A stretch of DNA of 64,000 bases, taken from the NCBI GenBank assembly GCA_964015875.1, contig CAXHEV010000005.1:1143-65142 (forward strand). Reading direction: 5' to 3'. Every line of letters starts with the position of its first letter. The first letter of the stretch is position 1. The stretch is from an uncultured Candidatus Poseidoniales archaeon. GTDB taxonomy: Archaea > Thermoplasmatota > Poseidoniia > Poseidoniales > Poseidoniaceae. A program made the position numbers and the translations under genes. Positions 30,501 to 62,970 of the stretch are shown here, in pieces. The notes below the pieces were generated by a model. That model saw nothing but the letters and a program-made list of their open reading frames with translations. It did not search any database and was not told where the DNA came from.

Positions 30501-30787
30501 CCGATTGATGACTGGTTGATTGGGCTGGCAGATCGGTAGACATTGTAGGTGGCCGAAAAGAGCCCTTGCAACACTGAACCATCATAGTCGATGTTTCGCC
30601 ATGTGACGGTTGTCGTTTCGCTGGAAGGGTCAAACATTGCACTGATATCTTGTGCTTGGAGGTTGCTTGGATTGCCAAGATCCTCTGCCGCGACATTGGA
30701 GAGTGGCATGATGGCGAGCACCATGCACAACACGAGGAAAACTGCTTTCCTTTCAGTGCCTTTACCGAACATTTGGTCTGTCATCAA
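27560..30787 (-). CDS. Large type-I membrane-anchored surface protein with repeated FN3/Ig-like modules and an acidic-then-basic cytoplasmic tail.
   Basis: N-terminal signal peptide (…VFLVLCMVLAIMPLSNVAAE). About 900 aa extracellular with recurring Y-x-[IV]-[WY]-R-[ST] beta-sandwich signatures (YNVYRSASP, YQINIWRTDYP, YRIYMSGNP, YHIWRSNFR, YEIWRHYGG). A single TM (VLVWVLTGVFVMSLIVMALII). An ~150-aa tail with poly-Asp/Glu runs ends in KKRTVGRRSAPRKAPARRKVGRAKKDD. Confidence 0.6.
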   Translation of the reverse strand: MMTDQMFGKGTERKAVFLVLCMVLAIMPLSNVAAEDLGNPSNLQAQDISAMFDPSSETTTVTWRNIDYDGSVLQGLFSATYNVYRSASPINQSSIGSLTPFVDGIIACSSVEVLNDAFKCRGLNGTVDYHTASFLVPPGVNGTFHYAVTTTLDDGTELLDLDTNASVLEAPVQETTTPIRTPYNLVADFDPERSVTSLTWVNYNDIFPILPETGDDAYQINIWRTDYPITRANGADLLSTTSPIASYPAGTSSVELSIPDSTDRDAYYAVTYLLPNWTAPGEDYQDVRFLSNNALSSSLVEDNMPPSQVGIMYAEFIPNPDSGGGTTTITWTDVPDESGESYRIYMSGNPFSTIVSSSVQMIATVSEGVGSFEYDVPIGRLGYANYCIITVDLYGVLDTNTTVNSCAGPVFEDAFTPWIAEPTQVHAEFIGERTTRVTWQDQLGVEGERYHIWRSNFRVTGAEFVANQSMEWLGSVSDGVGFFDVLLDTEILRDNAHYYVTTEALYGHINGTYMDTRLNQNHYGPISEDTRAPNPARIKEATSLGALNQITLEWFNEPDVNEGYEIWRHYGGPFGENEDQIGNIGDDGWEFVLGDISPGESTASTLVRQLPIPAGVDRDVWYAVIIEDQWGNQNPEMFSGIGGNAVKINEDTKFPVASMILLDEEGSAFQSPSLVSGSYVVQMEIDEYLQGNPSVNITTIAGGDISGGEIEMNMIADNNNDPDRGPVYAFEFFVSQSTIAGDMVIELIMEDESGNTISQTWTDRAVDAKRPTVEIYAPSSGTDGSKYLYGNSIQVLAGATDDVMVTSFQYKFTYNYGTGNSQTTPWSESTTVTDLDGDSRSLVLDMEFSAGNFEPGQHAVFVRAVDSAGNEVSKNVVFVVDQCRNRLDGTTSCNYVESLQPEPEPIVITPSMSDPPYVLVWVLTGVFVMSLIVMALIIQTSMSGPKKKKSKGDEDGEDDDWMSEFIGTSQDLDMAAVTDTSGGEKKEEKATADVEEEDDPFAVNVVQRKTRSKKAAVEEEEDDDDDDMFNWNDDEDDDEEEEEPAPVAKKRTVGRRSAPRKAPARRKVGRAKKDD

Positions 30788-33246: not shown

Positions 33247-34062
33247 ATGCGCCCGCAGCTTGTTCGACCGCTCCTCATGTGTGCGGTGCTCATTGCGGCG
33301 TTTGCCTCGGGTTGTCTTGGGGGCACTGATGAAGAGGAAGATGTTGGTCCAATCACACTCACTGTCTACTACGAAACGACCTCAGGAACCATCACTGAAA
33401 CCATTCAAAACAATCAGCAGGTTTCTGAACAAGGAGTCGAAGTTGTGTTTGACTATTCATACACCAAATCCAGCGAAGGTGACATCTCATCCTTCGTCTA
33501 TGATCCTGGAGATGGGTCAAACCCGATCACCATCAATGCTGCAGATACGAGTGAAATCAGCTACACATACCTGACCCACGGTATGTTCTCTGCTGCTGTT
33601 GGTGCCATCGACGCCGAGGGCAACGAGCGATTCGAGAACGTCACGATCAGAATCGATAAGGAAATCACTTGGACCGATAGTACGACGACAGACCCACGAA
33701 CAATGAACATCGATGCAACGCCCGACTGTGAATGTCAGCTTCCTGAGCAAATCAAAATAGATTCAACCGTTACCAACCCTTCCAACTTAGCTGGATTTGG
33801 TGGATCGCCAGTCACCGTCACCTGGTACCTCAACAACAGTGAGGGGGATGCTGTGGCTGAGTCACCGCCTGAACAACTTGCTGACGGCCAAGAAGGAACC
33901 TGGGCTCACAATGAGTTCGCCCCTATGGCTGGAGTTTGGACGCTCGAAGTCGGATTGAATCAAGACCAAGAGAATGTTGATGTCTCACACATCGTTACCA
34001 TTGCCTATGCTGCTGAAGAAAGCGCTAGTAATCCGTTCCCTACCGATGAAAGTACGCCTTAA
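33247..34062 (+). CDS. Hypothetical secreted lipoprotein.
   Basis: Signal peptide ending in a lipobox-like LIAAFASGC. Thr/Ser/Asp-rich beta-rich body. 271 aa. Confidence 0.5.
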   Translation: MRPQLVRPLLMCAVLIAAFASGCLGGTDEEEDVGPITLTVYYETTSGTITETIQNNQQVSEQGVEVVFDYSYTKSSEGDISSFVYDPGDGSNPITINAADTSEISYTYLTHGMFSAAVGAIDAEGNERFENVTIRIDKEITWTDSTTTDPRTMNIDATPDCECQLPEQIKIDSTVTNPSNLAGFGGSPVTVTWYLNNSEGDAVAESPPEQLADGQEGTWAHNEFAPMAGVWTLEVGLNQDQENVDVSHIVTIAYAAEESASNPFPTDESTP

Positions 34063-34251: not shown

Positions 34252-35289
34252 ATGGCGACCAAATCGAAGAAAAAAGCGAAGATAGAAATTGAAAACAATG
34301 AAGACCCTCAAGAGGAGCCAGTCGAAGTAATGGCGACCGAAGAAGAAGCACCCGAGATCAAAATCGATGACTTACCTGGTGTTGGACCTGCGACAGCAGA
34401 GAAACTACGCGAAGCTGGATTTGACGATCTCCTCGCTCTGGCCGTGATGTCGCCTGGCGACCTTGCAGACCAAGCTGAACTTGGAGAAGCCGTGGCAACA
34501 AAAATCATCGGCGCTGCAAAGAAGATGGCAAACATTGGTGGATTCGTTTCTGGTGGAGCGCTCCTCGAACGTCGAAGAGAAGTTTTGAAACTCTCATCCA
34601 AGGTTCAATCGATCGACGACCTGCTCGGCGGTGGATTTGAAACCCAAGCGCTGGTTGAAGTCTACGGTGCATTTGGAAGCGGAAAAACCCAAATTGGCCA
34701 TCAATTGGCCGTCAACTGCACACTCCCAATGAGCGAAGGTGGATTCGATGGCGATGTGTTTTACATCGACACTGAAGATACATTCCGTCCTGAGCGCATT
34801 ACACAAATGGCACGCGGCCACGGGCTTGATCCGGATGCAGTATTAGCGAGAATCCATGTTGCACGAGCGTACAATTCTGCTCACCAAATGCTCCTTGTTG
34901 ATGAAATCAAGCGCATGAGCAAAGGGCTCAATGTCAAGATGATTATTGTCGATTCGCTGACCAGCCATTTCCGTGCGGAGTACATTGGACGGGGAATGCT
35001 CGCAAACCGACAGCAGAAACTCAACCGACATCTCAAGGACTTGAAGCAACTCGCAGACGTCAACAACGCATTGGTCTTGGTGACCAACCAAGTTCACTCA
35101 AAGCCTGATGCAATGTGGGGCGACCCAACAAAGCCGATTGGTGGGCACGTACTTGCTCACGCATCGACCTTCAGACTGTACTTGCGCAAGGCAAAGGCAG
35201 GACGTCGGATCGCTCGCCTCGTCGACTCGCCGAATTTGCCAGATGGTGAATGCGTCTACCAGGTCACACAAGAAGGCCTCCGCGATTGA
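34252..35289 (+). CDS. radA: DNA repair and recombination protein RadA.
   Basis: N-terminal HhH domain ([28 protein letters not shown]), Walker [10 protein letters not shown], Walker B MIIVDSL, and RecA/Rad51 loops. 345 aa. Confidence 0.95.
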
Positions 35290-35326: not shown

Positions 35327-36496
35327 GTGCGGCACATTCAAGGTCACATCAACAAGGAAAGCAGCATGCGACATCTTGTTGAACGAGTCTTGGAACTGTC
35401 AGAAGCAGAACAGGCAGCGGCGAATACCGTCGCTCCGCCAATGAATGAAAATTCTGAGGTTGAGTTGCAAGCCCTTCTCGAATCCCTTCAACCAAGGATC
35501 CGAGTGTATGGTGTGGGTGGAGCTGGTTGCAACGCTGTCAATCGATTATTCGATGAACGTTTGTTCAAGAATTCGTACGTCACAGGATACGCCATCAATA
35601 CAGATGCCCAGGCATTGCTGATGTCACCGATCGAAGAAAAAGTGTTGATTGGAAGGACTGCACGGGGCCGAGGTGCTGGTGGCGACCCGACTAAAGGCGA
35701 GGCTGCAGCGTTAGAGTCTGAACCTTCCCTACGTCGAATCACCAATGACACGCAGCTTGCCATCATCACGGCAGGCATGGGTGGAGGATCTGGTACTGGT
35801 GCCGCAGGCCACATAGCTCGGCTTGCAAAGCAACAGGGTGCGATGACCATCGCAGTAGTGACATATCCTTTCAATTCAGAAGGAGCTCTACGAAAGCAGA
35901 ACGCTGAGTGGGGATTGGAACGCCTGCGTGAACACTGTGACACCATTTTGGTCATCCCGAACGAGAGATTACTCGAAATTGAAGGTGTCAAAGATCTCCC
36001 TATTGGAGACGCATTCAGAGTTGGTGATGAACTGCTTGTGCGTTCAATTACAGGAGTCGCAGAAATGCTAACCACCGATGGTATGGTCAACCTCGATTTC
36101 GAAGACCTACGTTCCGTCATCCAGTTCGGTAGCGGTGTAGCTATGATTGGACTTGGAGAAGCAAGTGGACCTGGTCGGGTTGAGGCTGCCACCGAGGAGG
36201 CAATGCATTCACCATTGCTCGATATTGATTCATCGGATGCCCGAGGTGCACTCATCAACGTCGTTGGTGGTCCTAGCCTTACTCTTGGAGAGGCTGAGAA
36301 ATGTGCTAAAATCATCAGCGATCAAATTTCACCCCACGCCCAAGTCATCTGGGGTGCTGCTGTACGCGAGGAATTAGGCGATGAAATTCGAGTCATGCTT
36401 GTCTTGACCGGGGTGAAGAGTGACCAGATCCATGGTGCAAGTGAAAACAGACAATTGCGAGCGCTTCAAAATCGCCACATAGAATTCGTCAACTGA
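35327..36496 (+). CDS. ftsZ: Cell division GTPase FtsZ.
   Basis: Tubulin signature GGGSGTGAAG, N-terminal IRVYGVGGAGCNAVNRL, T7 loop NVDFEDLRSV. 389 aa. Confidence 0.9.
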   Translation: MRHIQGHINKESSMRHLVERVLELSEAEQAAANTVAPPMNENSEVELQALLESLQPRIRVYGVGGAGCNAVNRLFDERLFKNSYVTGYAINTDAQALLMSPIEEKVLIGRTARGRGAGGDPTKGEAAALESEPSLRRITNDTQLAIITAGMGGGSGTGAAGHIARLAKQQGAMTIAVVTYPFNSEGALRKQNAEWGLERLREHCDTILVIPNERLLEIEGVKDLPIGDAFRVGDELLVRSITGVAEMLTTDGMVNLDFEDLRSVIQFGSGVAMIGLGEASGPGRVEAATEEAMHSPLLDIDSSDARGALINVVGGPSLTLGEAEKCAKIISDQISPHAQVIWGAAVREELGDEIRVMLVLTGVKSDQIHGASENRQLRALQNRHIEFVN

Positions 36497-41542: not shown

Positions 41543-44500
41543 TCATCCGTGAAGGAAACTATTGAGTGCGCGGCTGTTCTTTGCCACGCCAAATCCAAAT
41601 CGCTCTTCGAGTGCTCTTGAAACCAATGTGAAATCACTGTCCCGTGTAGCCACTAGAATGGTTCCAAGATTGCCCAATGATTTCTTTGCCAGGTGGATAG
41701 CGAGATGCATAATGGTGCGATCTGGAGCCTCGGGATAGACATCCAGCCCATCAATGACGGTCCGTGCAGGTTCTCCACGTGTTCGCTTCATGGCAGTAAT
41801 TTCTTCATAAATTTCAGTGTAATCTTTGAAGAATTCAACCACACCTGACTTGTTTTCTTCTTCTTCTGCTTCTGCTTCGAGTTGCAAATCCATTGGGCGC
41901 CACGTGCTGTAGTCTGTGAGTACTCTGTCTACGATTTCGCTGATGACGTCTTTTTGGAAGACCGTATCAAGCATGGTCGGTGGCACCAAGAGATCACTGA
42001 ACCTATTGCGTAGGAAGTTCATGTCGCTGGCAATTCCAGTGAGTTCTTGCTTCACAATCTTTGGAAGCCAAAGTTGAATTTTACCTTCCTGTGCACGCTT
42101 GAGAAGGACGTGGTGGAAGTGCCCGTGCCCACCAATATCAAGACTGGCTTCAGTGAAAACCTCGAGTTTTTGCTTGATAGCATCCATCAGTGCGTCAACA
42201 AGAACATTGGTGTCAATGAGGACCAATGGGGAGAGCGAGAGGTTTCTGAGGTACCTGCGAGAGCCATTTGGAATTTGGTCTTTGTAGGCGGAAAACAGAC
42301 CCTGTTCTGCATCTGCAATTCGCTTAATCTCCCGTATGTTGAATTGGCCACGGTTTTGAGCCCGTTCAAGGAACATCAGTCCTTCGACTGGTTTTTCTTC
42401 AGCGGCCTCCTTTGCTAAATCGTACAATTCATCCAGTGAAGGAGAAGAGCCTTGCATCAACTGAGTAAACCTCGTATCGAATGCATTTCTTTGCCTGCGG
42501 CGGTTCTTTTGTAGGGAATTCACCGCTGCTGTGACCCTACCGCAAAACGGATCTGTTGGCAGAACACGTTGATGTTCAAAGGGGTATGTCTTGAGCATGT
42601 CAAGATCGTCTTCTGCAAAATAAGTGACTTCGATTTCTTCGAGTTCCCCAGATTCATTCTCTTGTGAAATAACCTTTGTCGAGCGTACGAAATCCTTCAG
42701 TAAACGGGTCGCCTCATTGGTACTTCGCATCGAAGTAAACGATACCCGGAGGTACAGTTGAAACCTCTTAGTGATTGCACTTCGAAGGGAGGGTTGGGCT
42801 TCGAGTAATTCCACTGCTTCCTTCCACTGTTCTGCAAATGCCAAGTGGATGAGTGATTTACGATAGAGCACCACTTTGTGCTCGTAGTCAAAGCCGTCAT
42901 GATCTCCTGCTCTACGGTAATCACGTGCGGCATTCAATTCATCCTTCTTTGAAGCCGAAACCGAAGCGCGTGCGAGGGTGTGCCAAGGCGAAAGGGGATC
43001 GTTTGTTTGGTACCATCGTACCAACGAAGGCAATCCAATATCGTGTTCGAGAACGAGATGGCGTACGGAGTGAATCATGGCAGTTGGAACATTTTCATTG
43101 CTAAGCAAGGTGTTGACGCTTTCCACAGTTGCATCATCCGATGTCCCATGTTGGAGCATGAGTGCCACTCGATTCAGCCTTAGCGTGTCGATGACGGCCG
43201 TGAAGAGGTGTTCCTCCATCAAGCTAAGATTTGCTTCTGCGATGCTGGTCTGCAAGGCATTCAGTTCCTTATTCTCGACGATTCCTGAACCGCCTTCGCG
43301 CAGTGCACGGCGGATGACGCCGAAGGCAAGGAGGCCACTTTTGTCAAGCAGAGTTCCGAGCCTTTCGTCATCAACATTCTCACCTTCAAACAGCATGAGT
43401 AATGCTTCACTGGTTGAAGAGAAGGCAGGCGGAGCATCCGTGCTGTGAACAGAGTCCAACGCCTTCTCACGAGCAGATCGGACAGCATGCCACAAATCGT
43501 TGTCTTTGCCTGCTGCTAAGAGATGCGCAGCGAGAAGGGTCTCATATGGGTGCGAGAGAGGTGTCAGATCATTCTTCACGATAATTTCTGACAACCTTCG
43601 CAAGTTCATCGAACGTGTGTAAATGTCAATGACGACTGGGAGCACTTGCTCCCACGCTTCGATGTTTTCTGGGCTGAGATGCTTTGCTGCCAGAGCCTGA
43701 GTTTCTGTATGGATGCCAGAACCACAGATGATGTCAACGAGGGCGCCGTCATCAAGATGGGGAATCTGACTTTCGAGCCACGCTTGAACTTCCTCATTCG
43801 AAAGATCAGAGACAAGCGGGATTAAGTTTGATAGTTCAGCATGCACATCGAGTTTGAGAGCAGTCAATGTTTCGATGGTTTCTTTTGACTTTCCTTCACG
43901 ATGAAGGGCTGCTAAGCGCCACCATGTCACGCGCTCAATCGCCTGCGTTGGTGCATCGCCATTCTGAAGCAATTCGAGCCCTTCGGTTAGGCTTGCTGCA
44001 TCCATTTCTGAAGAGGATTCTGGAGGGTGTTGCCAGGCAAGGAACCGGCGGCGAAGCGCAAGAGAATGCTCTCCCTTGGCGTTTGCACTTGCATCCCAAT
44101 CCTCAACTTGGCCGTTTTGAAGTTGAGTCAAATCCATCAATTCAGAAGCAAGTTTTTTGTCGACCTTTTCAACTCGAGCAAGGGCATCTGTTGCATCGCT
44201 ATCGGTAGCAATGTGAAGCAGAGCCGAGAGCACCGACGCCTGTCCTTCAAGATTGAATAACAAGTCACTGGGCGTTAAGGTGCGGCCTGCTGATAATTGT
44301 GAAGTGACGTTTCGTAGTGCGACTTGAGCATCGGCCGTATCGACCGTTGCCGCAAGAGAGTCGAGGGCTGTAGCCAAATCCTTCGAAGAACGAGGATCGA
44401 TAAAAGCGGCTGACATGTCTACCTTTTTCTTAGATGATTTTTTCTTTGGTTTTGCGACTGGGAACGCCGCAAATTGACCAAACACCGGGGTATGTTGAGC

Positions 44501-44845
44501 AAGTTCGCCCCACACAGGATGCACTCCCTTTTCGAGGCAAGAGTTTCGAAGACTGGTTTCAGTTGTTTCCCAAGAAGAATCCCAATCATCTTTGTTGAGG
44601 AGTTTATGAGAGAGAAGGACTGCAAGTCGGTATGCATCAGAATAATCGCTTGGAATAAGCATTTCCTCGGGTGACGGGATCAAGTCCATTGGACTGGTTG
44701 AACCTCGGCCACCTCGCCTTGTTCTTGTTCGCCGCATATTGACTGACTTTCGCATTGGCGAGGGTTGTTCGTCTTCATCTGCGGCTGGAAGTTCAGTTTC
44801 TGCAATCGCTAAGAGAAGAATTGGTCGCCATGATTTCTCAAGCAA
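41543..44845 (-). CDS. Large (~1100 aa) hypothetical helical-repeat protein with a C-terminal PIN-like nuclease domain.
   Basis: The last ~230 aa begin with a PIN strand-1 signature (LVLIDTNVLVDALMD) and end with the distal acidic motif (TILVATRDSDFTLV), with a long insertion between them. The preceding ~800 aa are Leu/Ala-rich helical and TPR/HEAT-like. The N-terminal boundary is uncertain; in-frame ATGs lie at 44845, ~44692 and ~44416. Confidence 0.55.
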   Translation of the reverse strand: MLEKSWRPILLLAIAETELPAADEDEQPSPMRKSVNMRRTRTRRGGRGSTSPMDLIPSPEEMLIPSDYSDAYRLAVLLSHKLLNKDDWDSSWETTETSLRNSCLEKGVHPVWGELAQHTPVFGQFAAFPVAKPKKKSSKKKVDMSAAFIDPRSSKDLATALDSLAATVDTADAQVALRNVTSQLSAGRTLTPSDLLFNLEGQASVLSALLHIATDSDATDALARVEKVDKKLASELMDLTQLQNGQVEDWDASANAKGEHSLALRRRFLAWQHPPESSSEMDAASLTEGLELLQNGDAPTQAIERVTWWRLAALHREGKSKETIETLTALKLDVHAELSNLIPLVSDLSNEEVQAWLESQIPHLDDGALVDIICGSGIHTETQALAAKHLSPENIEAWEQVLPVVIDIYTRSMNLRRLSEIIVKNDLTPLSHPYETLLAAHLLAAGKDNDLWHAVRSAREKALDSVHSTDAPPAFSSTSEALLMLFEGENVDDERLGTLLDKSGLLAFGVIRRALREGGSGIVENKELNALQTSIAEANLSLMEEHLFTAVIDTLRLNRVALMLQHGTSDDATVESVNTLLSNENVPTAMIHSVRHLVLEHDIGLPSLVRWYQTNDPLSPWHTLARASVSASKKDELNAARDYRRAGDHDGFDYEHKVVLYRKSLIHLAFAEQWKEAVELLEAQPSLRSAITKRFQLYLRVSFTSMRSTNEATRLLKDFVRSTKVISQENESGELEEIEVTYFAEDDLDMLKTYPFEHQRVLPTDPFCGRVTAAVNSLQKNRRRQRNAFDTRFTQLMQGSSPSLDELYDLAKEAAEEKPVEGLMFLERAQNRGQFNIREIKRIADAEQGLFSAYKDQIPNGSRRYLRNLSLSPLVLIDTNVLVDALMDAIKQKLEVFTEASLDIGGHGHFHHVLLKRAQEGKIQLWLPKIVKQELTGIASDMNFLRNRFSDLLVPPTMLDTVFQKDVISEIVDRVLTDYSTWRPMDLQLEAEAEEEENKSGVVEFFKDYTEIYEEITAMKRTRGEPARTVIDGLDVYPEAPDRTIMHLAIHLAKKSLGNLGTILVATRDSDFTLVSRALEERFGFGVAKNSRALNSFLHG

Positions 44846-52129: not shown

Positions 52130-54451
52130 TCAGTTTTCATCAACAGGATCAATCAGACTTTCCCAGTAAGGTTCCTGGCGAATTGCATCAGCGGCACAAA
52201 TTGCAGCCATGTTCACAATGTGGCGCACTCCGTCTCGGCGAGCAACAAGTTGGACAGGTTGAGCCATGCCCTCCAATATTGGGCCAGTCATTTCTGCATC
52301 ACCCAATTCTTCGAGCAACTTGTAGGCAATGTTGGCAGCAGCAAGGTTAGGCAACACCAACACATTGGCAGCACCCGTGAATTCCATGAATGGGTACTCG
52401 CCTTGCACGTCTCCGTTCAAGGCCGTATCGGCCTGCATCGGCCCGTCAATGACCAGTGAGGGGTCGAGTTCTCGAGCAAATTCAATGGCGTCCTCGATTC
52501 GTTCAGAACGTTGTGCTCGACTGCTGCCAAAGTTCGAAAACGAAAGCATGGCAACTACGGGATCGACACCAAATCTTCGAGCCACCTTTGCAGTTTGTAC
52601 CGCAATTTCAGCCAGCGTGCGACTGTCTGGATACACGTTGACTGTTGCATCAGCGAGGAAGATCGTACGACCTTTGACGTTCATCATATAGCACCCAACA
52701 ATGCAGTGGGCATCATCGGCTGGCCCAATCAATTCAAGTGTTGGTCGTAGAACATCCGCATAATTTCGAGAAACTCCGCCAACGAAGCCATCAGCGTCCC
52801 CGTTGGCGACCATCTGGCTTGCAAAATATGGCCGAGATTTGAGGAGGCGTGCTGCATCGACTACGGTCATTCCTTTGCGGTTACGACGGTTTAGCATCGA
52901 TTGGGAATAGACGCCCTTTCGTCTTGGGTCCTTACGAGGGTCATAGACTTCGTAATCAAACTGTAGGCTGAGCTCGTCAACCATTCGATGTATGCGTTCT
53001 TCAGGACCAAGAAGGATTGGATAGCAGATTTTCTGTTCGGCCAGTTGAGCTGCTGCTCTAATGACCATTTCATTATCGCCTTCAGGGAACACAATGCGCT
53101 TTCCTCGCCCGCGAACCTGGTTAATGACATGGCGCATGATGGAGTAGGATTGGCCTAGACGAGCCTCAAGTTCGTCCCTGTAGTCGCTGATAGAAAAATC
53201 ATCAGCCGCCACACGAGCGATGCCTTCATCCACCGCTGCTTGTGCAACTGCAGATGCTTCCCAAAGCAGGACTCTGCGATCGAATGGTTTTGGGATGATG
53301 TATTCCGGACCATATTGCATGACGGCCCCGTCATAAGCTGCCGAAATATAATCGGGAACTGGTTCTTTTGCGAGAGCTGCCAGAGACCGGGTGGCTGCCA
53401 TCTTCATGCCCTGAGTGATGTCTGTTGCTCGTACATCGAGGGCTCCACGGAAAATGTAAGGGAAGCCGAGGACGTTGTTGACTTGATTCGGATAATCTGA
53501 ACGCCCTGTCGCAATGATGGCGTCGGTGCGCACCTCGAGAATTTCTTCAGGGAGAATTTCTGGGGTTGGATTGGCCAAAGCGAATATGATTGGTTTTGGG
53601 GCCATGGTTGCCACCATTTCCTTGCTGACCAATCCGCCGCGCGAAAGTCCAAGCATGACGTCTGCCCCATTCAGGGCGTCAGACAAATCCCCAGGTTCAC
53701 GTTCATGAGCAAAGGGCGCCTTGTATTCATTCAATTCTCCTGCTTCCAGCCGTGCTTTCGTGACAATGCCCTTGCTGTCAACCATAGCGATGTTCGATCT
53801 GGTGACGCCTATGGCCACGTAATGATTGGCGCAAGCAATGGCGCTTGCACCCGCTCCGATGACGACCACTTTGATTTCAGAGAGTTTCTTTTCTTGAAGT
53901 TCAACCGCATTCAACAGCGCAGCAGCGGAGATAATTGCGGTCCCATGCTGGTCATCGTGCATCACTGGAATATCGGTGGCCTCAGCGATACGGCGTTCGA
54001 TTTCAAAGCATTCAGGAGCCTTGATGTCTTCGAGATTGATGCCTCCAAAAGTCTTGGCGATATTGACAACTGTTTCTATGAAGGCCTCTGGATCTTCGGT
54101 GTCAACTTCGATATCAAACACGTCAATATCTGCAAATGTCTTCAAAAGAAGGCCCTTGCCTTCCATCACGGGCTTGCTTGCAAGTGCCCCGATGTTGCCC
54201 AATCCGAGGACAGCTGTTCCGTTCGAGATAACAGCCACTAAGTTGCCTTTTGATGTGTAGCGGTATGCATCTTCTGGTTTGTCCGCTATCTCGAGACAAG
54301 GGTAGGCTACGCCAGGCGAATATGCCAAACTCAATTCATATGCGGTACTGTGCGGTTTGGTGGGGACGACCTTGATTTTCCCCTGTGGTTCGGCCTCGTG
54401 ATATTCGAGAGCTTCCTTTTTGAGCAGGCGCTCTTTCTTCTCCCGATTCAT
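52130..54451 (-). CDS. maeB: NADP-dependent malic enzyme, MaeB type (malic enzyme domain fused to a phosphotransacetylase-like domain).
   Basis: Malic-enzyme region (…LSLAYSPGVAYPC…, NAD(P) fold VVIGAGASAIACA) followed by a PTA-like C-terminal half. Start set at the internal ATG (MNREKKERLLK…). Confidence 0.9.
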   Translation of the reverse strand: MNREKKERLLKKEALEYHEAEPQGKIKVVPTKPHSTAYELSLAYSPGVAYPCLEIADKPEDAYRYTSKGNLVAVISNGTAVLGLGNIGALASKPVMEGKGLLLKTFADIDVFDIEVDTEDPEAFIETVVNIAKTFGGINLEDIKAPECFEIERRIAEATDIPVMHDDQHGTAIISAAALLNAVELQEKKLSEIKVVVIGAGASAIACANHYVAIGVTRSNIAMVDSKGIVTKARLEAGELNEYKAPFAHEREPGDLSDALNGADVMLGLSRGGLVSKEMVATMAPKPIIFALANPTPEILPEEILEVRTDAIIATGRSDYPNQVNNVLGFPYIFRGALDVRATDITQGMKMAATRSLAALAKEPVPDYISAAYDGAVMQYGPEYIIPKPFDRRVLLWEASAVAQAAVDEGIARVAADDFSISDYRDELEARLGQSYSIMRHVINQVRGRGKRIVFPEGDNEMVIRAAAQLAEQKICYPILLGPEERIHRMVDELSLQFDYEVYDPRKDPRRKGVYSQSMLNRRNRKGMTVVDAARLLKSRPYFASQMVANGDADGFVGGVSRNYADVLRPTLELIGPADDAHCIVGCYMMNVKGRTIFLADATVNVYPDSRTLAEIAVQTAKVARRFGVDPVVAMLSFSNFGSSRAQRSERIEDAIEFARELDPSLVIDGPMQADTALNGDVQGEYPFMEFTGAANVLVLPNLAAANIAYKLLEELGDAEMTGPILEGMAQPVQLVARRDGVRHIVNMAAICAADAIRQEPYWESLIDPVDEN

Positions 54452-54663
54452 AGGCAATCGATTCCAACGAATGTGGTTCGGTGTTTGAGTGTTGTGTGTC
54501 CGGAGAACCAAGGATGACCAAAAGCAGTGCTCTCAGATTCCTCCATGATGATTTCAAAACCCCCATTTTCACTGTAATTCTCCGTTTTTTTGGTTATTCA
54601 AGTGATGAATATAGCACACGACCAAGGGCCGCGTTCAAATACCCCAAAAGTCCCCTCACCAAC

Positions 54664-57600
54664 ATGAAGCCAGTCTTTGCTCTATTTTCCCCCGGCTCGG
54701 CCGGCAAAAGAGCCGTCCTGTTGGTCGCTTTGATGCTCTGTTCTTCTGTCGCTCCAATGATGATGATTCCTGGTGCATCCGCCCACGAATCTGCCAATGA
54801 CACAATCTGGCCAAAATCGGGCAGCAATGACACCGGTTGGGTGCAGTTGGATGCTACGGGAGCCAACCCCTTGACTGGCGGCCAAGCAACAGCAGATTGG
54901 ACGCTTGAATTTGCACCAGGTGCTGATTTGTCCAACGTTTCATTCCAAGTGCGAGTTGATGGCAGTGACGGTTTGATGATTGAAGAGCCAATGCTCGTTG
55001 CGAGTGATATCGGGATTAATCTTCTCGATTGGCGGGGGTTGGGGACCCTGGGCGCTGCAGATTCATTCGAAGGCACAAATCCTCACGAAGGAAGACTGGC
55101 CCCCAACAGCGATTCTGGAGCAACCTGGACCCTCCCTTCCGATGCGGAAATCACCGATTTGGTGATTGAAGCCTTAGCACCAGTGGATCCTGCAGTTTCC
55201 TTCGAACCTATCGATCTGGCAATTCAAACCCATGCAATCCACCCCTATGACGGGCGAATGTACATCGCCATCCTTGACGACGTTCTTGTCTTGGACTACA
55301 ACAACGATCCACCAATCATCGACATGCTTGAGTTTGAAAGCGATGTGATTGACATGGAGATTGATTTGACAAATAACCTCATTCACATGCTGACTGAAGA
55401 AGACGGTTTCTTTGCCATATCGCTCATCGATTCAAGTTCTCAAAAGGTCCTTCCAGACGCATCGGATCCAAATTATGTTCAATTCGATCAATTCGTATTG
55501 GCCAGCACTGGTGATGTCTATGCAGCGAATCAAGACGAACTTATGTTGTGGAATGGCGGTTCATGGGCCAACGTCGCTGACATGGAGGGAACGACCTTAG
55601 CCATGGTTGAAGCCAATGGAATTCTGTATGCATCAATGGATGACCGTGGTGTGGCTCGATACAATCTTGCAAATGGCCAGCTGCTTTCGACATGGTCCAC
55701 TGCTAACAGTTTGCACTCCGATGAAATTGTTGAAATTGCGATTTCAGGAAATCAACTTCTCTTCGCTTCCCCTGATGCCGGTTTGGCACGATATGATTGG
55801 AGTTCGGGCTTCTGGCTCTCGACTTGGAACGATGGAAACTGGTTGGCAAGCAACGACATCACTGGACTTGCCCGCTCCGGTAATTCACTGTACATCTTGA
55901 ACGGCGACTCCTTGCACACATACAACACCGCAAGCAATGTATTTTCGGGCTCTCAATCCCTCGATGCTTTTGGTCTCGCCAACAGCGGCCAAGGCCTACT
56001 CACGTGGCCAAACGGCGGAGAAAGATCCCCCTCTACAGAACTCATTTTGGTTAGTGATGGTGATGGTGCTTTGGTTGAACTCACCCCTGGCGCGACGCCA
56101 CTCAACACAGGAGTTTTGCTGCTCGGAAGTGGCCCTACATCTGGTCAAATGATTGATTCGACCGAATTGGACGGTGTGCTCTTCGTAGCAACAGATGACC
56201 AGTACCTCAATCGATTTGACACGCAAGCGTCGCGCTGGATTGAGCCCGTGTTTATTGGAGCAGACATCGCTCGGCTCAGCACAGACGGGAACCACGTCTA
56301 CATTGCTGCAGGCAATGGTGCACACCAGATGCACGGCAACGGAACCGTTCTCCAAACTTGGGATACTTCCAACACCGACCTGTCAGGAAATGAAGTGACT
56401 TCTGTTGAATCAGATGGTTCTACGGTTGTCGTTCTGAATGAATTCTATGGGGAATTTATGGCCGTCAACCTCACTGGCTCCCTTCCAGTGGTGTTCGAGT
56501 CACTCGCTCTTAGTCAGGGAACCGTGACCGATGCAGCGATTCACAACGAAGTCGCATATGTTGGCACTCAAAACGATGGCCTTCTTCGGTATGACATCAC
56601 CAACGACACGTGGTTGACCCCGTGGATCTCCACAGGCATCAACGGAGCAAACGATGTCCCTGTTGCTGTTGTTGGCGATATCTTGTATTTCGGAATCCCC
56701 GGATATGGCGTAGCGCGAAAAGATTTGGGGACCAATGAAATCTTACTCCCACTCACCGAATTTGGCACCATTGGAGTGCTTCCAAGCGACACGATCTATT
56801 CCCTTGAAGCAAACGGCAACCTTCTCTACATTGGCACTAACAACGGCGCTATTGAGTGGGATGAAAGCGCGTCCAGTTCCAGTTCATTCCAGCTTGGCCG
56901 ACAGTGGGATGAACGGCCACAACAATTCTTTGATTTCGTCGTTGTTGGTTCAAATGTATATGCGGCAACCAACATTGGCGTATGTGAATTCCCAACCTCT
57001 ACCATCGATATTGAAGAATGTTTGAATGTCTACGATGGGATGCCAAATTGGGCAACCTATTCTGTGGGCGTCGGTGTCTCGAACACGTACTTGTTTGGAG
57101 GAACAAACTCAGGCGTCGGCATCATCAGCATCTCACCATTCGACGTTGTTGGAGAGTGGACTGCCGGTGAGCAGACCAACAACGCACCTGTGGTCGTGGT
57201 TGGCGATGTTGCATTCATCGCTCTTGACGGCATTGGTATCGCTCGTTATGACATCACGAATAATGAGTGGCTCACTCTCTGGACTGATGACAATTTCCTC
57301 GATAATGGCAATGAAGATGCGACTGCACTTTCAGCAGATGTGAATCCGAATTACGTCTGGATTGGCGGTTCAGACGGATTCCAACTCCTCAACGCCACCA
57401 CCGGGGCCGAAGTGTATGATATCGAAAAATCCAGCAGCCTCTTTGCAGGGAATGGTGACCCCCTTGATATGATTCTCAAAGGCGATATAATGTATTATCA
57501 CGATGGAGCAAGCAGCGACAATCTGTACCGATTTAATGCTCGAAACTTCACAGCCCTTTCCGCACTCGACGCAGGTTCCCAAATTGGCCAAAACAATGGC

Positions 57601-60600
57601 GATGTGAACGGAATGGGCCTTATTGGCGACACCATCATGATCAGCATTGCATCCCAAAACTGGTGGCAAGTCGATGGCTCGGGTGGTATCGCACAATGGA
57701 ACACAAGCAGCAATTCCTGGGAAGATAACATTCTACCGATCGGGCAAGTTGACCGCGTGACTGCTTACGAAGCGACGAGCGGTAATATGTGGGTCTCATG
57801 GGGCGAAAATTCACTCCAGTACATGGCAGCAAACGGCACATTGCTTGGAGAATGGGACGAAGACGACTTCGACTTCCCCATCCGTGAAATCATAGAATAC
57901 GATGGTGAAGTTCTGTTTGCTACCGAAGATGGAGTAGCGCGATTTGACGAGTCCACGGGCACTTGGTCCTCGACTTGGACACCTGGATCTGGCCTGCCGA
58001 ACGACGCAGGAGAGCAAGTGTATGAACTCTGGACCGACGGTACTGACTTGGTCGTCGGCAGCGGTGAACTCAATGGATTTGGTCAGTTCAGAAATGGAGC
58101 GATTTCCCACTGGGATGGCGGAACGTGGAACAACTATGAAACCGGATCGAACGGCGTGCCAAACGGATACCCAATCACCATGACAGAATGTGACGGTGTG
58201 CTTCATATCGGGATTTATGCCAACAACGGTGGTGTAGCACGGTTCGATATGGCCAACGACTCGTTCCTTGGCACCTTCACTCGAAGTGATTGGAGTGAGG
58301 ACTACGGTGAAGTCTCTGGCGTTGCATGCGATGGTGCAGGCACTCTCTATGTGGCATTCTACGAAGACGAAGCAGATGTCAAAAAGTACAGCTATGCCTC
58401 AAACAGTTGGCTTAACCCGATCACGACAACAATTCACAATTTGCCAAGCGACAGGGTCTGGTGGGACGCCATTGATTATTCCAACAGCATGCTTGTGCTC
58501 GGTCATGGAATTGGTACCAGCGGCGACAACATCATCGGCGGAGGTTACAGTGCTGTTGCCACATCTGGTGGCTCGACTGCTCAAGTGAATTTCAACGGCC
58601 AAGGCTCATCTGTGACTTCATTCCAATGGCTTGGAAGTGAATGGCTCATAGGTCAAGCCGGCGGCTCTTCTGGCTACAGCCACGTCGATACCGTAAGTTC
58701 GCTCGGACAAAACACACTGCTTGATTTCCCCGGCCTCGTTAGTGGACAAGTGACGAGTATGGCCGGCAATGGTACTCATCTTTGGGTGGCAACCCAGGGA
58801 GCCAGCCAAGGCTTTGGAAACGGAGGGGGTTCTGCCGGAGCAGGTCTACTTCAAGGAGAACGCCAAGCAGATGGTACAGTTGATTGGCAACAAGGTTGGA
58901 CAATGACTGCAAATTCTGTGGTCAAGGACACAGAACTGATTGGAACTGACCTTTACATTACAACAACGCCAACGGGCTTGTACAAACTCGACACCCTTAC
59001 AGGAATCTTGACGCGCATGACCGGTGGGCTTCACAACAATATGGATGGACTCTTCCTCTATGGAAACGATCTGGTCATCGGTTTGCAAGGAAGCTCTGGA
59101 TCTGCTGCTGGTGTTCAAATCTACACGCCCGGCACAGGGTTTGGAAATGGAAGATTGCTCGGTGGATTGCCTTCAAACAACATCAATGCATTCACTGAGT
59201 CCTCAACCATGCTCTACATCGCAACGAATGGCGGCATCGGCCGTTGGGACTACACCACGAGCGATTGGGCTAACCCACTCACAACCAGTGATGGGTTGCC
59301 AACAAATGTAGTAGAAGACGTGGTCATGGTTGGAACCGATCTGTGGATGGCGACCGCCGCAGGTGTTGTCAAGATGGATACCTTAACCAACGCTACAACC
59401 CTCTACAACAGCGGAAGTGGCCTTATGGCAACTTCAGCACAATCGCTTACAACCGCCATTGAAACCATTCAAAATAACGACGGCACAACATCAACCTCAA
59501 CCACGTTATTCATTGGACACGACGGGGCGGGTTCTGAACGACCTGGCGTCACAAGTATGGACGGCAATGGTGCTGTTGAATGGCACAAGTTTGACCAGTT
59601 GTCTTCGAACACCGTCGACGCACTTGCAGCCGATTGGTGGGGACTTCACATCGCCACAGATATTGGGCCGATGAACCATTACAACGGTCAGTCAAACCAA
59701 TTTGAAGACGGAGTTCCTTCGTTCCAAGTTGCTGGATGGCCGATTCAAAAGATGGTCAGTGATGGCGACCACGTGCTTACGATTGGCGCCAATGGTGCTT
59801 CGATTTTGAGCGCTCGCACACCAACTCACGCCACACTGAAAATGTTCCAAGGCAGCGGAATGACTGGAGGCACAATCACATCAGATGCCATCTGGCTGAC
59901 AACCGAAGACATCGGTCTCTTTGGCTATGAAAACAACGCACAGTACAAGGAAATTGAACGATTTTCATTGCGGAAGGCAAACCCATTGAATGTTGGATTT
60001 AACCTGGCATTCACCGACATCAGCGATATGACTCATCCCGGTATGCCAATCGTTCTTGCCAACGCAACAAACACAGCAACACTTGACCCAACGCTTGGGG
60101 TGGTTGGCACGAATGGAATCATGTTCCAAACTGTTCCACTGGCCTTCACTTCACCCGTTAGCAATGCAGCGACGTGGGCCAAGTCTGTAAGTCTGAAGTA
60201 CAACGCCACAATTGAACTCAACAATAATCCAGATTTTGAAACGACCATGCAGATGGCTGTTGACAATGGAATTATCATCAACGGTACACAATATGTCCAA
60301 TTGACACTCCGCTCGCCGATTAATGGATCCATGCATGTGCGACTCATCTATGACTACGTCAAAACAGAAACGCCCATCACGATGTCAGAACTTATCGATC
60401 GCCCTGATGATGGCGGGGGTGCGTTGATGGCTGAATGGAGTCTTGTTCACGATGATGACTTCGCCCGCTACCTCGTGTATGTTAACGACGGGCCTGTTTG
60501 GGATGCCAACGGCATCACAGCAGATGTTCTTCAAACACGAACCGTCGATAAGGCGATTTCACTCCATAGCCGACTCTCAAGTGAGGTCACGACTGCAAAT

Positions 60601-62970
60601 GGCGTGGACCTCATCGATGGCACGGATTACTACGCTGTGGTTGTTGTCGAATACGACGATGGCCGGCTTGGTACACCATCAGCGGTCCTAGGTCCAGCGT
60701 CACCAAGTGACGAAGTCCCATTGCCGCCTGTGTGGGCTGACGCTGGCCCGCATGAAGGTGGAGAAGATGGTGACCTCGATGTTGAATGGTCGCGCTGCAC
60801 AAGCCTTGATTTGGTACAAACCAACATTTACACTTCAACTCAACCGATGAGCGATGTCCTTGGACTCACGCCGGAAAGTGAAGTCATGAAGATGGAAGGC
60901 AACTCGACCGTGCTCTCACTTTCGCCTGGCCAACCCTACTGGCTTGGACTCACTTGTGTTGATGAAGCGGGACAAGAGGACATTATGAACGCCCTCATCG
61001 TTGGACCATTTGTCCCAACAGGTGGCCTCAATGACAACACTGCTCCACCAAAGATGGAAAACGTAGCAGCAGTTGACACCCCCGATGATGACGGTGGCCG
61101 AATCACCGTCTCGTGGGATGTTAATCCAGCAGAGGACTGTACCTTCTATGCAATCTTCATGCGAACAATTGAATCGACCGGTGCACAACTTAGCGGCTCT
61201 TCTGTAGCTGACGGTAGTGGGTTTAGTCAAGCAAAAATCATCAACGATTGCACTGAGAACTCAACCATTGTAACCAGCATCGACGGCATCGCACTCCAAG
61301 ATGGGCAGATGTATCTTGTTGGCGTTGTTGCGTACGACGATTGGTTGAACGCAAACCTTGACGATGTAGATCTTGTTGAAGTGACACCACTACGAAATCA
61401 AAACGGTCAACCGACTCCTCCTGACCGAACTGAGTTTGTTCAAGCCTTTGATCATCCCAACGATGATGGAACATCCATTGATGTGCTTTGGTCGATTTCG
61501 GACGCTGACGATTTCTCACACTACACCGTCTGGGCCGCAGACCAACCAGTCACCGATTTATCTGCTGCATGGGCATTGTTTGGCAATGACCCTGCACAGT
61601 GTGGTTGTTTGAAGGTCAACAGGCAATGGGTCGATGAATCGTTCGATCCTCTCGAAGTCACCCTCACAACAGCATTGTATGGTGGCGCCGGTGGCATGAT
61701 GGATCTGACTCAAACCACACCCCAACCAATCCAACCAAACGTCGAGTTGTATGTGGTTGTGACAGTTCACGATTTGTCTGGCAATGTGTTCCTGACCGAT
61801 CTTAATCAAGCGACAGTGACGCCTATTGACAACGCTCTTGACACCACAGCACCACCTCGACTTGACGCATTGACGCTCTCGGACAGAGCACTCGATGATG
61901 GAAGTGCTCTGCTTCTTGATTTCGAATTGAGTTCTGCGAGTGATGTAGGGTCATACGAAGTCTATGCTGCAACATGGTCCTTCACCAGTGTTGGAACAGG
62001 CACGCTTGGACCAAGCACCCCAATTGCGGTTCTCGACCGTGCACCCGATTTGCCACTCACCATCGACCTCGTTGCGGGCGATACGCCTGTGATTCCGGGC
62101 CAAGAAATCTGGGCTGTTGTTGTAGTGAAGGACACATCGGGCAATGCCTTCACTTCAGATTTAACAGCAGTCTCCGCTCAATCTGTGGATGATGGATACG
62201 ATGCTTCTGGCTCTTACCTACCCAATGTTGCTGGACTCAGTGCTGTTTGGATTGAAGAGACGAAAATCCTCGTTGAATGGACGCCGGCGAGTGACGACAA
62301 TCTTCGCGGCTACCAAATCTACATCGCCGAGGAAACCTATGACACAATTGACAGCGCGACATTGGTCGGTGAAGTTCAATCCTCGAATTCGTTCCTCATC
62401 ACCTCGAACGGCTTCCCTGATTTGAACAATGACTCGGCATGGTACATTGCCGTGACTCCATTCGATGATTTGGTCAGCAAAGAAAGCGTAAACCCAATCC
62501 AACTTGATGCTTACAAGGCGAACGCAGGCGCTGGGTCTGGAGATGAAGGCGCAAACGAAGGTAATGATTTCTCGTCGTTGCTGACGACACCAAATCTCCT
62601 CGCAGCAGGGCTCTTCATTACAGCCATTTTCTTGTTCATCGCTGTGATTCGAACACGAGGAAATCAACAGAGAAAGGCGAAATCTTGGGAACTTCAAGAG
62701 GCTACGTGGGGTCTTCAAGACGACCAAGCTTGGGATGACTCTCCACCTGCACCTGCTCCACCTCCAACACAGCCGGCGACGCCTGCTGCTGACATGTATG
62801 CACAACCTACAACTTCCCAGGACATCTATGGCCGACCAGCCTACCAACCTCAGCAACCAGTCATGCAGCCCGCACAGAACAACGATCTGCTCAATGAATT
62901 GGGTGTTGGAACAAACCCTCCACAACAAAAGCAAGCCATTGATACATCGTTCCTTGACGATTTGCTCTGA
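54664..62970 (+). CDS. Giant (2768 aa) membrane-anchored surface protein: many two-component-regulator-propeller-like beta-propeller blades, then FN3-like modules, one TM helix, and a Pro/Gln-rich tail.
   Basis: Signal peptide (MKPVFALFSPGSAGKRAVLLVALMLCSSVAPMMMIPGASA). More than 30 repeats of a ~45-aa blade motif (…G[VL]ARYD…W.T.W…). The distal ~900 aa carry the same Y-x-[VI]-[YW] FN3-like signatures as the 27560..30787 protein. TM LLAAGLFITAIFLFIAVI, then a PAPAPPPTQPATPAAD…PQQPVMQPAQ tail. Confidence 0.7.
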   Translation: MKPVFALFSPGSAGKRAVLLVALMLCSSVAPMMMIPGASAHESANDTIWPKSGSNDTGWVQLDATGANPLTGGQATADWTLEFAPGADLSNVSFQVRVDGSDGLMIEEPMLVASDIGINLLDWRGLGTLGAADSFEGTNPHEGRLAPNSDSGATWTLPSDAEITDLVIEALAPVDPAVSFEPIDLAIQTHAIHPYDGRMYIAILDDVLVLDYNNDPPIIDMLEFESDVIDMEIDLTNNLIHMLTEEDGFFAISLIDSSSQKVLPDASDPNYVQFDQFVLASTGDVYAANQDELMLWNGGSWANVADMEGTTLAMVEANGILYASMDDRGVARYNLANGQLLSTWSTANSLHSDEIVEIAISGNQLLFASPDAGLARYDWSSGFWLSTWNDGNWLASNDITGLARSGNSLYILNGDSLHTYNTASNVFSGSQSLDAFGLANSGQGLLTWPNGGERSPSTELILVSDGDGALVELTPGATPLNTGVLLLGSGPTSGQMIDSTELDGVLFVATDDQYLNRFDTQASRWIEPVFIGADIARLSTDGNHVYIAAGNGAHQMHGNGTVLQTWDTSNTDLSGNEVTSVESDGSTVVVLNEFYGEFMAVNLTGSLPVVFESLALSQGTVTDAAIHNEVAYVGTQNDGLLRYDITNDTWLTPWISTGINGANDVPVAVVGDILYFGIPGYGVARKDLGTNEILLPLTEFGTIGVLPSDTIYSLEANGNLLYIGTNNGAIEWDESASSSSSFQLGRQWDERPQQFFDFVVVGSNVYAATNIGVCEFPTSTIDIEECLNVYDGMPNWATYSVGVGVSNTYLFGGTNSGVGIISISPFDVVGEWTAGEQTNNAPVVVVGDVAFIALDGIGIARYDITNNEWLTLWTDDNFLDNGNEDATALSADVNPNYVWIGGSDGFQLLNATTGAEVYDIEKSSSLFAGNGDPLDMILKGDIMYYHDGASSDNLYRFNARNFTALSALDAGSQIGQNNGDVNGMGLIGDTIMISIASQNWWQVDGSGGIAQWNTSSNSWEDNILPIGQVDRVTAYEATSGNMWVSWGENSLQYMAANGTLLGEWDEDDFDFPIREIIEYDGEVLFATEDGVARFDESTGTWSSTWTPGSGLPNDAGEQVYELWTDGTDLVVGSGELNGFGQFRNGAISHWDGGTWNNYETGSNGVPNGYPITMTECDGVLHIGIYANNGGVARFDMANDSFLGTFTRSDWSEDYGEVSGVACDGAGTLYVAFYEDEADVKKYSYASNSWLNPITTTIHNLPSDRVWWDAIDYSNSMLVLGHGIGTSGDNIIGGGYSAVATSGGSTAQVNFNGQGSSVTSFQWLGSEWLIGQAGGSSGYSHVDTVSSLGQNTLLDFPGLVSGQVTSMAGNGTHLWVATQGASQGFGNGGGSAGAGLLQGERQADGTVDWQQGWTMTANSVVKDTELIGTDLYITTTPTGLYKLDTLTGILTRMTGGLHNNMDGLFLYGNDLVIGLQGSSGSAAGVQIYTPGTGFGNGRLLGGLPSNNINAFTESSTMLYIATNGGIGRWDYTTSDWANPLTTSDGLPTNVVEDVVMVGTDLWMATAAGVVKMDTLTNATTLYNSGSGLMATSAQSLTTAIETIQNNDGTTSTSTTLFIGHDGAGSERPGVTSMDGNGAVEWHKFDQLSSNTVDALAADWWGLHIATDIGPMNHYNGQSNQFEDGVPSFQVAGWPIQKMVSDGDHVLTIGANGASILSARTPTHATLKMFQGSGMTGGTITSDAIWLTTEDIGLFGYENNAQYKEIERFSLRKANPLNVGFNLAFTDISDMTHPGMPIVLANATNTATLDPTLGVVGTNGIMFQTVPLAFTSPVSNAATWAKSVSLKYNATIELNNNPDFETTMQMAVDNGIIINGTQYVQLTLRSPINGSMHVRLIYDYVKTETPITMSELIDRPDDGGGALMAEWSLVHDDDFARYLVYVNDGPVWDANGITADVLQTRTVDKAISLHSRLSSEVTTANGVDLIDGTDYYAVVVVEYDDGRLGTPSAVLGPASPSDEVPLPPVWADAGPHEGGEDGDLDVEWSRCTSLDLVQTNIYTSTQPMSDVLGLTPESEVMKMEGNSTVLSLSPGQPYWLGLTCVDEAGQEDIMNALIVGPFVPTGGLNDNTAPPKMENVAAVDTPDDDGGRITVSWDVNPAEDCTFYAIFMRTIESTGAQLSGSSVADGSGFSQAKIINDCTENSTIVTSIDGIALQDGQMYLVGVVAYDDWLNANLDDVDLVEVTPLRNQNGQPTPPDRTEFVQAFDHPNDDGTSIDVLWSISDADDFSHYTVWAADQPVTDLSAAWALFGNDPAQCGCLKVNRQWVDESFDPLEVTLTTALYGGAGGMMDLTQTTPQPIQPNVELYVVVTVHDLSGNVFLTDLNQATVTPIDNALDTTAPPRLDALTLSDRALDDGSALLLDFELSSASDVGSYEVYAATWSFTSVGTGTLGPSTPIAVLDRAPDLPLTIDLVAGDTPVIPGQEIWAVVVVKDTSGNAFTSDLTAVSAQSVDDGYDASGSYLPNVAGLSAVWIEETKILVEWTPASDDNLRGYQIYIAEETYDTIDSATLVGEVQSSNSFLITSNGFPDLNNDSAWYIAVTPFDDLVSKESVNPIQLDAYKANAGAGSGDEGANEGNDFSSLLTTPNLLAAGLFITAIFLFIAVIRTRGNQQRKAKSWELQEATWGLQDDQAWDDSPPAPAPPPTQPATPAADMYAQPTTSQDIYGRPAYQPQQPVMQPAQNNDLLNELGVGTNPPQQKQAIDTSFLDDLL

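Follow-up and report, generated by a model that had tools for sequence, protein, structure and literature searches.

In Marine Group II archaea, a core gene of constant length encodes a predicted giant surface protein of propellers and fibronectin type III modules

Propellers built of Reg_prop blades form the periplasmic sensor domains of the hybrid two-component systems of Bacteroides (BT4663, Protein Data Bank (PDB) entries 4A2L and 4A2M; BT4673, 3OTT and 3VA6; BT3049, 3V9F), in which 14 blades make two propellers that are followed by one Y_Y_Y domain, a membrane helix, and histidine kinase, receiver and AraC output domains. Two Reg_prop-like propellers are also present in PorZ (PDB 5M11, PF21544), a surface protein of the Porphyromonas type IX secretion system (T9SS). 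Several propellers are combined with fibronectin type III (FN3)-type modules in the single-pass type I proteins ROS1/Sevenless and LRP2/megalin, and Methanosarcina surface proteins, reportedly described by Jing et al. in 2002, are said to be built of YVTN propeller and PKD domains. Here we analyse a 64,000-nucleotide stretch of contig CAXHEV010000005.1 (assembly GCA_964015875.1, an uncultured Candidatus Poseidoniales archaeon), which we call the window, and within it the gene for a 2768-residue propeller and FN3 protein, which we call the giant. Its host belongs to Marine Group II (MGII), which is among the most abundant groups of archaea in the surface ocean and is uncultured, and we found no description of the MGII cell envelope in the literature searched.

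The giant is the product of a fixed-length core gene of MGII that occurs in both families, Poseidoniaceae (MGIIa) and Thalassarchaeaceae (MGIIb), and that is under strong purifying selection. A word-indexed search matched 176 clusters. Among the 120 of these that were listed, the query is covered over 97-100% of its length by proteins of 2739-2831 residues at identities from 100% down to 46%, with sources labelled as Poseidoniaceae, Poseidonia sp., or Thermoplasmatota or Euryarchaeota metagenome-assembled genomes. An exhaustive search with residues 1701-2768 brought in further full-length orthologs (2726-2863 residues, 30-45% identity), the most distant cluster of which includes a Thalassarchaeaceae accession. 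The source entries are named 'hypothetical protein' and, once, 'fibronectin type III domain-containing protein'. When all 181 sequences of 2600-2900 residues were taken together, a set that includes one non-ortholog (P0162), lengths ran from 2626 to 2863 residues (median 2777). When GTDB species genomes were scanned, relatives turned up in 322 stretches, the 80 best of which represent 80 different assemblies. Of these assemblies, 79 bear the label of Poseidoniales or of an archaeal taxon that encloses it (Euryarchaeota, Methanobacteriota, Thermoplasmatota), and the MG-II chromosome CM001443.1 (2.06 Mb) is among the 80.

An alignment of 120 sequences is evenly conserved with very few gaps along the entire protein, stalk included, and the gaps and the length range together show that the number of repeats is constant across orthologs. 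The ratio of nonsynonymous to synonymous substitution rates (dN/dS) is 0.039-0.047 for the giant in comparisons with two close relatives (dS ~0.5), against 0.075 for the neighbouring aminotransferase gene. Between lineages, the giant diverges at about the pace of the neighbouring aminotransferase and FGE-like genes; malic enzyme diverges more slowly. The gene order GST, FGE-like, malic enzyme, giant, class-IV aminotransferase, chorismate-binding/GATase is kept in relatives whose giants are 47-57% identical to that of the window, and the pairing of malic enzyme with the giant is kept at 33-39% identity and lost only in the MGIIb representative. The surrounding window is ordinary core genome, with genes for Pus10, KsgA, KatG, PGK, RadA, FtsZ, isocitrate dehydrogenase and cobalamin adenosyltransferase, and its GC content is flat throughout, the giant having the same composition as the rest.

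Some of the best 80 GTDB loci depart from this pattern. The locus that is not labelled as archaeal (CALDQY010000302.1, L067) is assigned to an uncultured Rhodobiaceae bacterium and carries a 51%-identical ortholog; it is probably mis-binned. Interrupted copies occur in two of the 80, L025 with two frame breaks (~900-7600) and L045 with a frame change (~7590-7630) within the last ~90 codons. Both interruptions are probably assembly errors in repetitive or low-complexity parts rather than signs of pseudogenes.

In the window itself, the reading frame of the giant is intact over its 2768 codons, although an interruption had been named in the preliminary description of this DNA as an outcome that would undermine it. 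The frame extends mechanically upstream on the + strand to a GTG at 54481. We chose the ATG at 54664 as the start because this places a signal peptide at the N terminus and gives a protein equal in length to database entry P0001, from which it differs at 13 residues. The putative signal peptide has KR at residues 15-16, a hydrophobic core at residues 17-35 and the sequence ASA-HE at residues 38-42, where cleavage would fall between the alanine and the histidine; hydropathy in a 19-residue window peaks at residues 16-20, and SAH in the cleavage region is invariant among orthologs. Only one other stretch of the protein is strongly hydrophobic, at residues 2645-2662, and it is directly followed by the basic stop-transfer sequence RTRGNQQRKAK, in keeping with the positive-inside rule. 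A third, shorter peak (residues 841-843) lies within a modelled blade strand. Because an N-terminal signal is combined with a C-terminal transmembrane helix that has a basic flank, the predicted topology is type I, as first described, which puts ~2600 residues on the outer side of the membrane and leaves a short tail in the cytoplasm. The protein is very acidic, with 355 Asp and Glu residues against 88 Lys and Arg.

Most of the ectodomain consists of propeller blades. Two AlphaFold2 models, of residues 36-1235 (model 1, mean predicted local distance difference test score (pLDDT) 74.8) and 1236-2435 (model 2, mean pLDDT 72.9), are both all-beta, and the 137 beta-strands counted in them between residues 187 and 1756 amount to ~34-35 four-stranded blades. 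The earlier count of more than 30 blades therefore stands when made on structure and fails when made on sequence, in which there are 10 instances of the literal G[VL]ARYD-like motif and an iterated blade profile recognises 19-20 blades. A profile built from 34 orthologs matched the BT4663 sensor in the PDB (4a2l_A) over three stretches with E 8.1e-13. Foldseek searches with both models were led by multi-propeller proteins, including the BT4663, BT4673 and BT3049 sensors and PorZ, and the Bacteroides double-propeller sensors were matched with probability 1.0 and E 1e-16 to 1e-21. The profile match and the Foldseek results support the Reg_prop-like class to which the repeats had been assigned, and PQQ or YVTN families, which would have spoken for a different class, appeared in no scan of the giant.

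The blades probably form five seven-bladed propellers. This grouping was deduced from the total of ~35 blades and from the strongest internal self-match, which has an offset of ~308-311 residues, equal to seven blades; the two together are support rather than proof. Comparison of five equal propeller segments with one another gave mostly blade-level matches at mixed offsets.

Distal to the propellers in sequence, and separated from them by the mid-domain, lies the array of FN3-like modules that the preliminary description had pointed out. A profile made from the C-terminal modules recovers exactly six of them in the giant, four of which start with D-x-(P/A)-(D/N/L)-D-(D/G)-(G/T/S). Model 2 covers modules 1-4 at pLDDT 70-89 and ends at residue 2435, early in module 5. 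Its Foldseek matches include, besides ROS1 and Sevenless, FN3 domains 7-10 of fibronectin (1fnf, 3t1w) and FN3 domains 1-4 of LAR (E ~1e-12). Large proteins that are unrelated but contain this module (E 1e-29 to 1e-61) score above the Pfam fn3 cut-off, at 33-90 bits. Model, fold search and module profile thus agree on a tandem FN3 beta-sandwich fold.

The domain count in Pfam that had been suggested as a check covered the full-length protein as well as ten overlapping pieces of it, and in the window protein it left both repeat classes below their cut-offs, within reach of profile and fold searches. The whole-protein scan gave no Reg_prop match, and the best score for PF07494 was 19.4 bits (cut-off 20.4, E 1.1e-3), from the piece spanning residues 1300-1700 only. 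For fn3 (PF00041) the best was 17.9 bits in module 6 (cut-off 25, E 3.5e-3). Precomputed matches exist in orthologs, to PF07494 in P0099 and P0104 (with a faint one in P0134 and P0139) and to PF00041 in P0022, P0023, P0030 and P0039. A scan of the giant against NCBIfam gave no match, and no family model of Pfam or NCBIfam matches the window protein above threshold.

The two remaining parts of the ectodomain are conserved and without a recognisable fold. The N-terminal cap has a mean identity to the query of 0.63-0.70 in the ortholog alignment and contains conserved sequons at N55 and N91; a profile of residues 42-186 found nothing significant in the PDB or Pfam, and nor did an NCBIfam scan. 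A mid-domain profile was likewise without significant matches in the PDB and Pfam. Below threshold, this domain aligns around the metal-binding loop of ConA-type legume lectins (E 0.13-0.8, all of one closely related family) and, in 2 of 10 members, with a CBM-like Pfam family (E 0.028). These matches lie below a safe threshold and hint at a carbohydrate-binding beta-sandwich.

On the cytoplasmic side, the Pro/Gln-rich tail that had been noted earlier is 106 residues long and 29% Pro and Gln, compared with 8% for the giant as a whole. Its juxtamembrane WELQEATWG is conserved among closer orthologs and its Pro-rich spacer is variable; the tail ends in ..PQQKQAIDTSFLDDLL-COOH. Of the 181 sequences, 131 finish with the ten residues IDTSFLDDLL and 49 with a close variant (VDTSFLDDLF, LDMSFLDDLL, LDSLIDDLL, GLVDDLF), so that 180 carry the peptide, whose core is [FL]-[LI]-D-D-L-[LF], or a variant of it, and the lone exception is the non-ortholog P0162. 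MGIIb (Thalassarchaeaceae) members retain it at 30% identity. Apart from the giant and its orthologs, no open reading frame (ORF) carried the peptide in the window and 88 related loci, 0.93 Mb that consists mostly of flanks of the giant gene and has little bearing on the rest of the genome. Because the extreme C terminus is conserved while the rest of the tail drifts, the peptide may be a docking site for a cytoplasmic partner.

Table 1. Coordinates of the giant gene, of the parts of its product and of its upstream flank (window positions).
Feature	Residues	Position	Strand	Basis or remark
Giant gene, ORF	1-2768	54664..62970	+	complete, uninterrupted; 2768 aa plus stop
Malic enzyme gene, MaeB-type with PTA domain		52130..54511	-	divergent from the giant
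Intergenic region, presumed promoter region of the giant gene		54512..54663	.	ORF map, sequence; common to the divergent malic-enzyme gene
Putative Sec-type signal peptide	1-41	54664..54786	+	KR n-region, hydrophobic core, ASA-HE
N-terminal cap domain	42-186	54787..55221	+	most conserved stretch of the giant
Propeller region	187-1756	55222..59931	+	~34-35 four-stranded Reg_prop-type blades; models, profiles, Foldseek
Mid-domain	1757-1902	59932..60369	+	conserved, no fold match
Six FN3-like modules	1903-2615	60370..62508	+	module profile, model 2, Foldseek
Bounds of FN3-like modules	M1 1903-2014; M2 2020-2118; M3 2130-2243; M4 2255-2390; M5 2398-2510; M6 2515-2615
Acidic Gly/Ala-rich linker	2616-2644	62509..62595	+	sequence; varies between orthologs
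Single transmembrane helix	2645-2662	62596..62649	+	hydropathy maximum 2.55
Cytoplasmic tail	2663-2768	62650..62967	+	WELQEATWG, variable Pro-rich spacer, YQPQQPVMQP
Near-invariant C-terminal peptide		62938..62967	+	IDTSFLDDLL-COOH; ortholog comparison

In comparison with the systems introduced above, the giant resembles the Bacteroides sensors in its Reg_prop blades (G-[VLI]-x-R-[YF]-D..W) and in the succession of tandem propellers, beta-sandwich domains and a membrane helix. It differs from them in having ~35 blades, probably in five propellers, six FN3 modules where the sensors have a single Y_Y_Y domain, an archaeal host, and a low-complexity tail of 106 residues in place of the signalling output. 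The Pfam scans gave no match to Y_Y_Y, HisKA, HATPase, Response_reg or HTH models. By sequence profile and modelled fold, its nearest family is the Reg_prop sensor domain, yet the absence of output domains and of a Y_Y_Y domain from the predicted protein means that it is not a member of the hybrid two-component systems.

PorZ, too, resembles the giant in its propellers (Foldseek E 6e-19 and 1e-11). The PorZ family PF21544 scores 14.2 bits in the window protein (cut-off 27, E 0.055), and weak precomputed matches to it occur in orthologs P0036, P0039 and P0040. Unlike the giant, PorZ lacks a membrane helix, carries the C-terminal sorting domain of the T9SS and functions within an outer-membrane attachment complex of bacteria; to our knowledge, archaea have no T9SS. 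We rejected an identity with PorZ on the grounds that PF21544 falls far below its cut-off and that the giant ends in a transmembrane helix and tail and has an archaeal host.

ROS1/Sevenless and LRP2 are the top Foldseek matches of the two models. Their propellers differ from those of the giant in being six-bladed, of the YWTD/LDLR type and interspersed with EGF or FN3 domains, and they have kinase or NPxY tails. With identities of 9-11%, TM-scores of 0.05-0.17 and root-mean-square deviations >30 Å, the likeness of the modelled giant to these proteins is one of layout and not of family. Archaeal surface-layer and surface proteins anchored by a C-terminal helix, those of Methanosarcina included, share with the giant the Sec signal, the acidic ectodomain, the combination of propeller with immunoglobulin (Ig)-like modules and its predicted stalk-and-canopy layout; the giant is much larger than these, has Reg_prop instead of YVTN blades, and bears a cytoplasmic tail that is long and conserved. 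In general terms, it belongs with the archaeal membrane-anchored surface proteins composed of propeller and Ig-like modules.

We favour, tentatively and at somewhat short of an even chance, the reading that the giant has a structural function at the cell surface and may be the main surface coat of MGII, over a purely adhesive or sensory role. The structural role is preferred because neither the number of repeats nor the presence of the giant varies, as both normally do in optional adhesins. The signal peptide and C-terminal anchor would also give it the secreted, cell-anchored ectodomain of a surface-layer (S-layer) protein. Sec export and signal cleavage would place the ~2600 acidic residues outside the cell, arranged from the membrane outward as linker, stalk of six FN3 modules, mid-domain, ~35 Reg_prop-type blades and N-terminal cap. 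An FN3 module is ~3.5 nm long, and six of them would make a stalk of ~20 nm that holds the propeller head, like a canopy, at a distance from the membrane. Ca2+ bound at the conserved D-x-P-D-D-G-G module starts may stiffen the stalk, the propellers may offer binding surfaces for polysaccharides or glycoproteins, by analogy with the Bacteroides sensors and PorZ, and the tail peptide may dock a cytoplasmic partner.

Several observations weigh against a structural role of this kind. No known S-layer family matched the giant in Pfam or NCBIfam at E up to 1-10, and we know of no archaeal S-layer protein that needs a long conserved cytoplasmic tail. The giant has 20 N-glycosylation sequons where 28 are expected, 8 of them conserved; an excess of sequons had been considered as a hint of an S-layer protein, and this idea was dropped when no enrichment was seen. 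The cap and the mid-domain are modelled with low confidence (pLDDT <50 and 37-57, respectively). Glycan binding by the propellers is suggested by family analogy, which is also the footing of the earlier proposal of a carbohydrate- or protein-binding scaffold: it remains plausible as an analogy. Finally, we found no mention of the giant in the literature searched, MGII papers included.

The alternative that survives best is an adhesin whose propeller head would bind algal polysaccharides or gel particles for attachment to food, without a lattice or structural function; we regard it as possible but unlikely. Particle attachment and the degradation of polymers are prominent themes of MGII papers, the mid-domain gives weak lectin- and CBM-like hints, and those Reg_prop relatives whose structures are solved sense glycans or bind anionic lipopolysaccharide (A-LPS), taking the ligands of BT4663 and PorZ to be glycans and A-LPS, respectively. 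However, adhesins this large usually differ in their number of repeats and are patchily distributed, whereas the protein described here has constant length and module number, order-wide presence and a dN/dS of ~0.04, and plain adhesion needs no conserved 106-residue tail with a near-invariant end.

The giant could instead be a transmembrane sensor, in which a ligand bound to the propellers would shift the geometry of the ectodomain or of a dimer, as in the Bacteroides hybrid two-component systems, and the helix would relay the signal to a partner that the tail peptide recruits. We think this improbable. Although the closest solved relatives by profile and fold are hybrid two-component sensor domains, and two cytoplasmic elements, WELQEATWG and the C-terminal peptide, are conserved, the tail is of low complexity, with no kinase, receiver, HTH or other output domain, and no Y_Y_Y domain was detected. 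Five propellers and six FN3 modules also far exceed the two propellers and one Ig-like domain of known sensors, and the conserved neighbourhood contains no signalling genes.

A further idea, which we hold to be distinctly improbable, gives the giant an integrin-like logic as an outside-to-inside coupler, in which the near-invariant terminal peptide would connect the large ectodomain, by way of the single helix, with a cytoplasmic machine. In a specific version, which is no more than a lead, the giant would dock SepF or another division or cytoskeletal factor and so coordinate the coat with division. The C-terminal peptide of archaeal FtsZ has the SepF-binding core LDDFI, within NEDQLDDFIDGIF in Methanobrevibacter smithii (PMC8178401). 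The likeness of the core of the giant's peptide to LDDFI spans five residues only. Mimicry of the FtsZ tail was also considered, but the FtsZ of the window ends differently, in ..RQLRALQNRHIEFVN, unlike the acidic LDDFI-type peptide of the Methanobrevibacter protein.

Almost no credence can be given to the view of the preliminary description, that this is an accessory and often strain-variable surface giant in a flexible genomic island, since its large size, surface location and repeats, and the frequent location of giant surface proteins of other plankton in variable islands, are opposed by full-length orthologs in both MGII families down to 30% identity, conserved synteny among housekeeping genes, even conservation, constant repeat number, a dN/dS of 0.04-0.05 that is below that of the neighbouring enzyme, and a GC content like that of the window. 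None of the features of a strain-variable island adhesin (variable repeats, patchy presence, relaxed or diversifying selection, island context) was found. The anatomy that had been proposed is confirmed, and its ecological interpretation is overturned.

Turning to the flanks of the gene, the class-IV aminotransferase gene starts 9 bases downstream of the giant, with pabAB-like genes beyond it. The conserved divergent pairing with malic enzyme could reflect a shared regulatory region or merely stable synteny, both being possible.

Three type-I anchored surface proteins had been proposed for the window. Besides the giant, this is in keeping with a 1075-residue ORF (27560..30787, - strand), which has one transmembrane helix and a cytoplasmic tail with long acidic and basic runs, and fails for a 607-residue ORF. 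The 1075-residue ORF had been called a paralogue sharing the FN3 signature: the module type is indeed common to both, as the FN3-module profile of the giant matches it at E 8e-8, but BLASTP between the two proteins was not significant (best E 0.52), and the label of paralogue was dropped for want of significant pairwise similarity. The 607-residue ORF (+ strand) starts at 39596 and not at 39686, as first given, and ends at 41419. It combines thrombospondin type-3 repeats with an FSH1 serine hydrolase domain, has a hydrophobic segment at the N terminus only and no C-terminal transmembrane helix, and gave no significant BLASTP match to the giant. These traits suggest an esterase that is secreted or N-anchored.

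Among the other genes of the window, that for FtsZ (Tubulin and FtsZ_C domains; 35327..36496, + strand) lies directly downstream of that for RadA (34252..35289). A 271-residue protein with a PKD domain (33247..34062, + strand) is another small protein of surface type. A 1100-residue ORF (41543..44845, - strand) was without matches in Pfam at E up to 0.01 and lacks an obvious signal peptide. A 265-residue ORF (19503..20300, - strand) shows a weak match to the histone fold (PF00125, E 4e-4, below cut-off) and may encode a long histone-like protein.

A streamlined genome of ~2 Mb keeps this 8.3-kb gene at fixed length and under strong purifying selection in both families, and the giant therefore ranks among the foremost candidates for the principal structure of the MGII surface. 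Such a structure would be what viruses, grazers, particles and dissolved polymers meet. Were the giant merely one more adhesin, the result would be an ordinary one. If the structural reading is true, the giant becomes a target for metaproteomics, cryo-tomography, virus-receptor studies and the capture of cells with antibodies or lectins, and its near-invariant tail peptide offers a direct handle for finding the cytoplasmic partner. The interest of the giant lies in its being a predicted envelope protein that is universal, fixed in size and strongly constrained in an archaeal order that is both abundant and uncultured.

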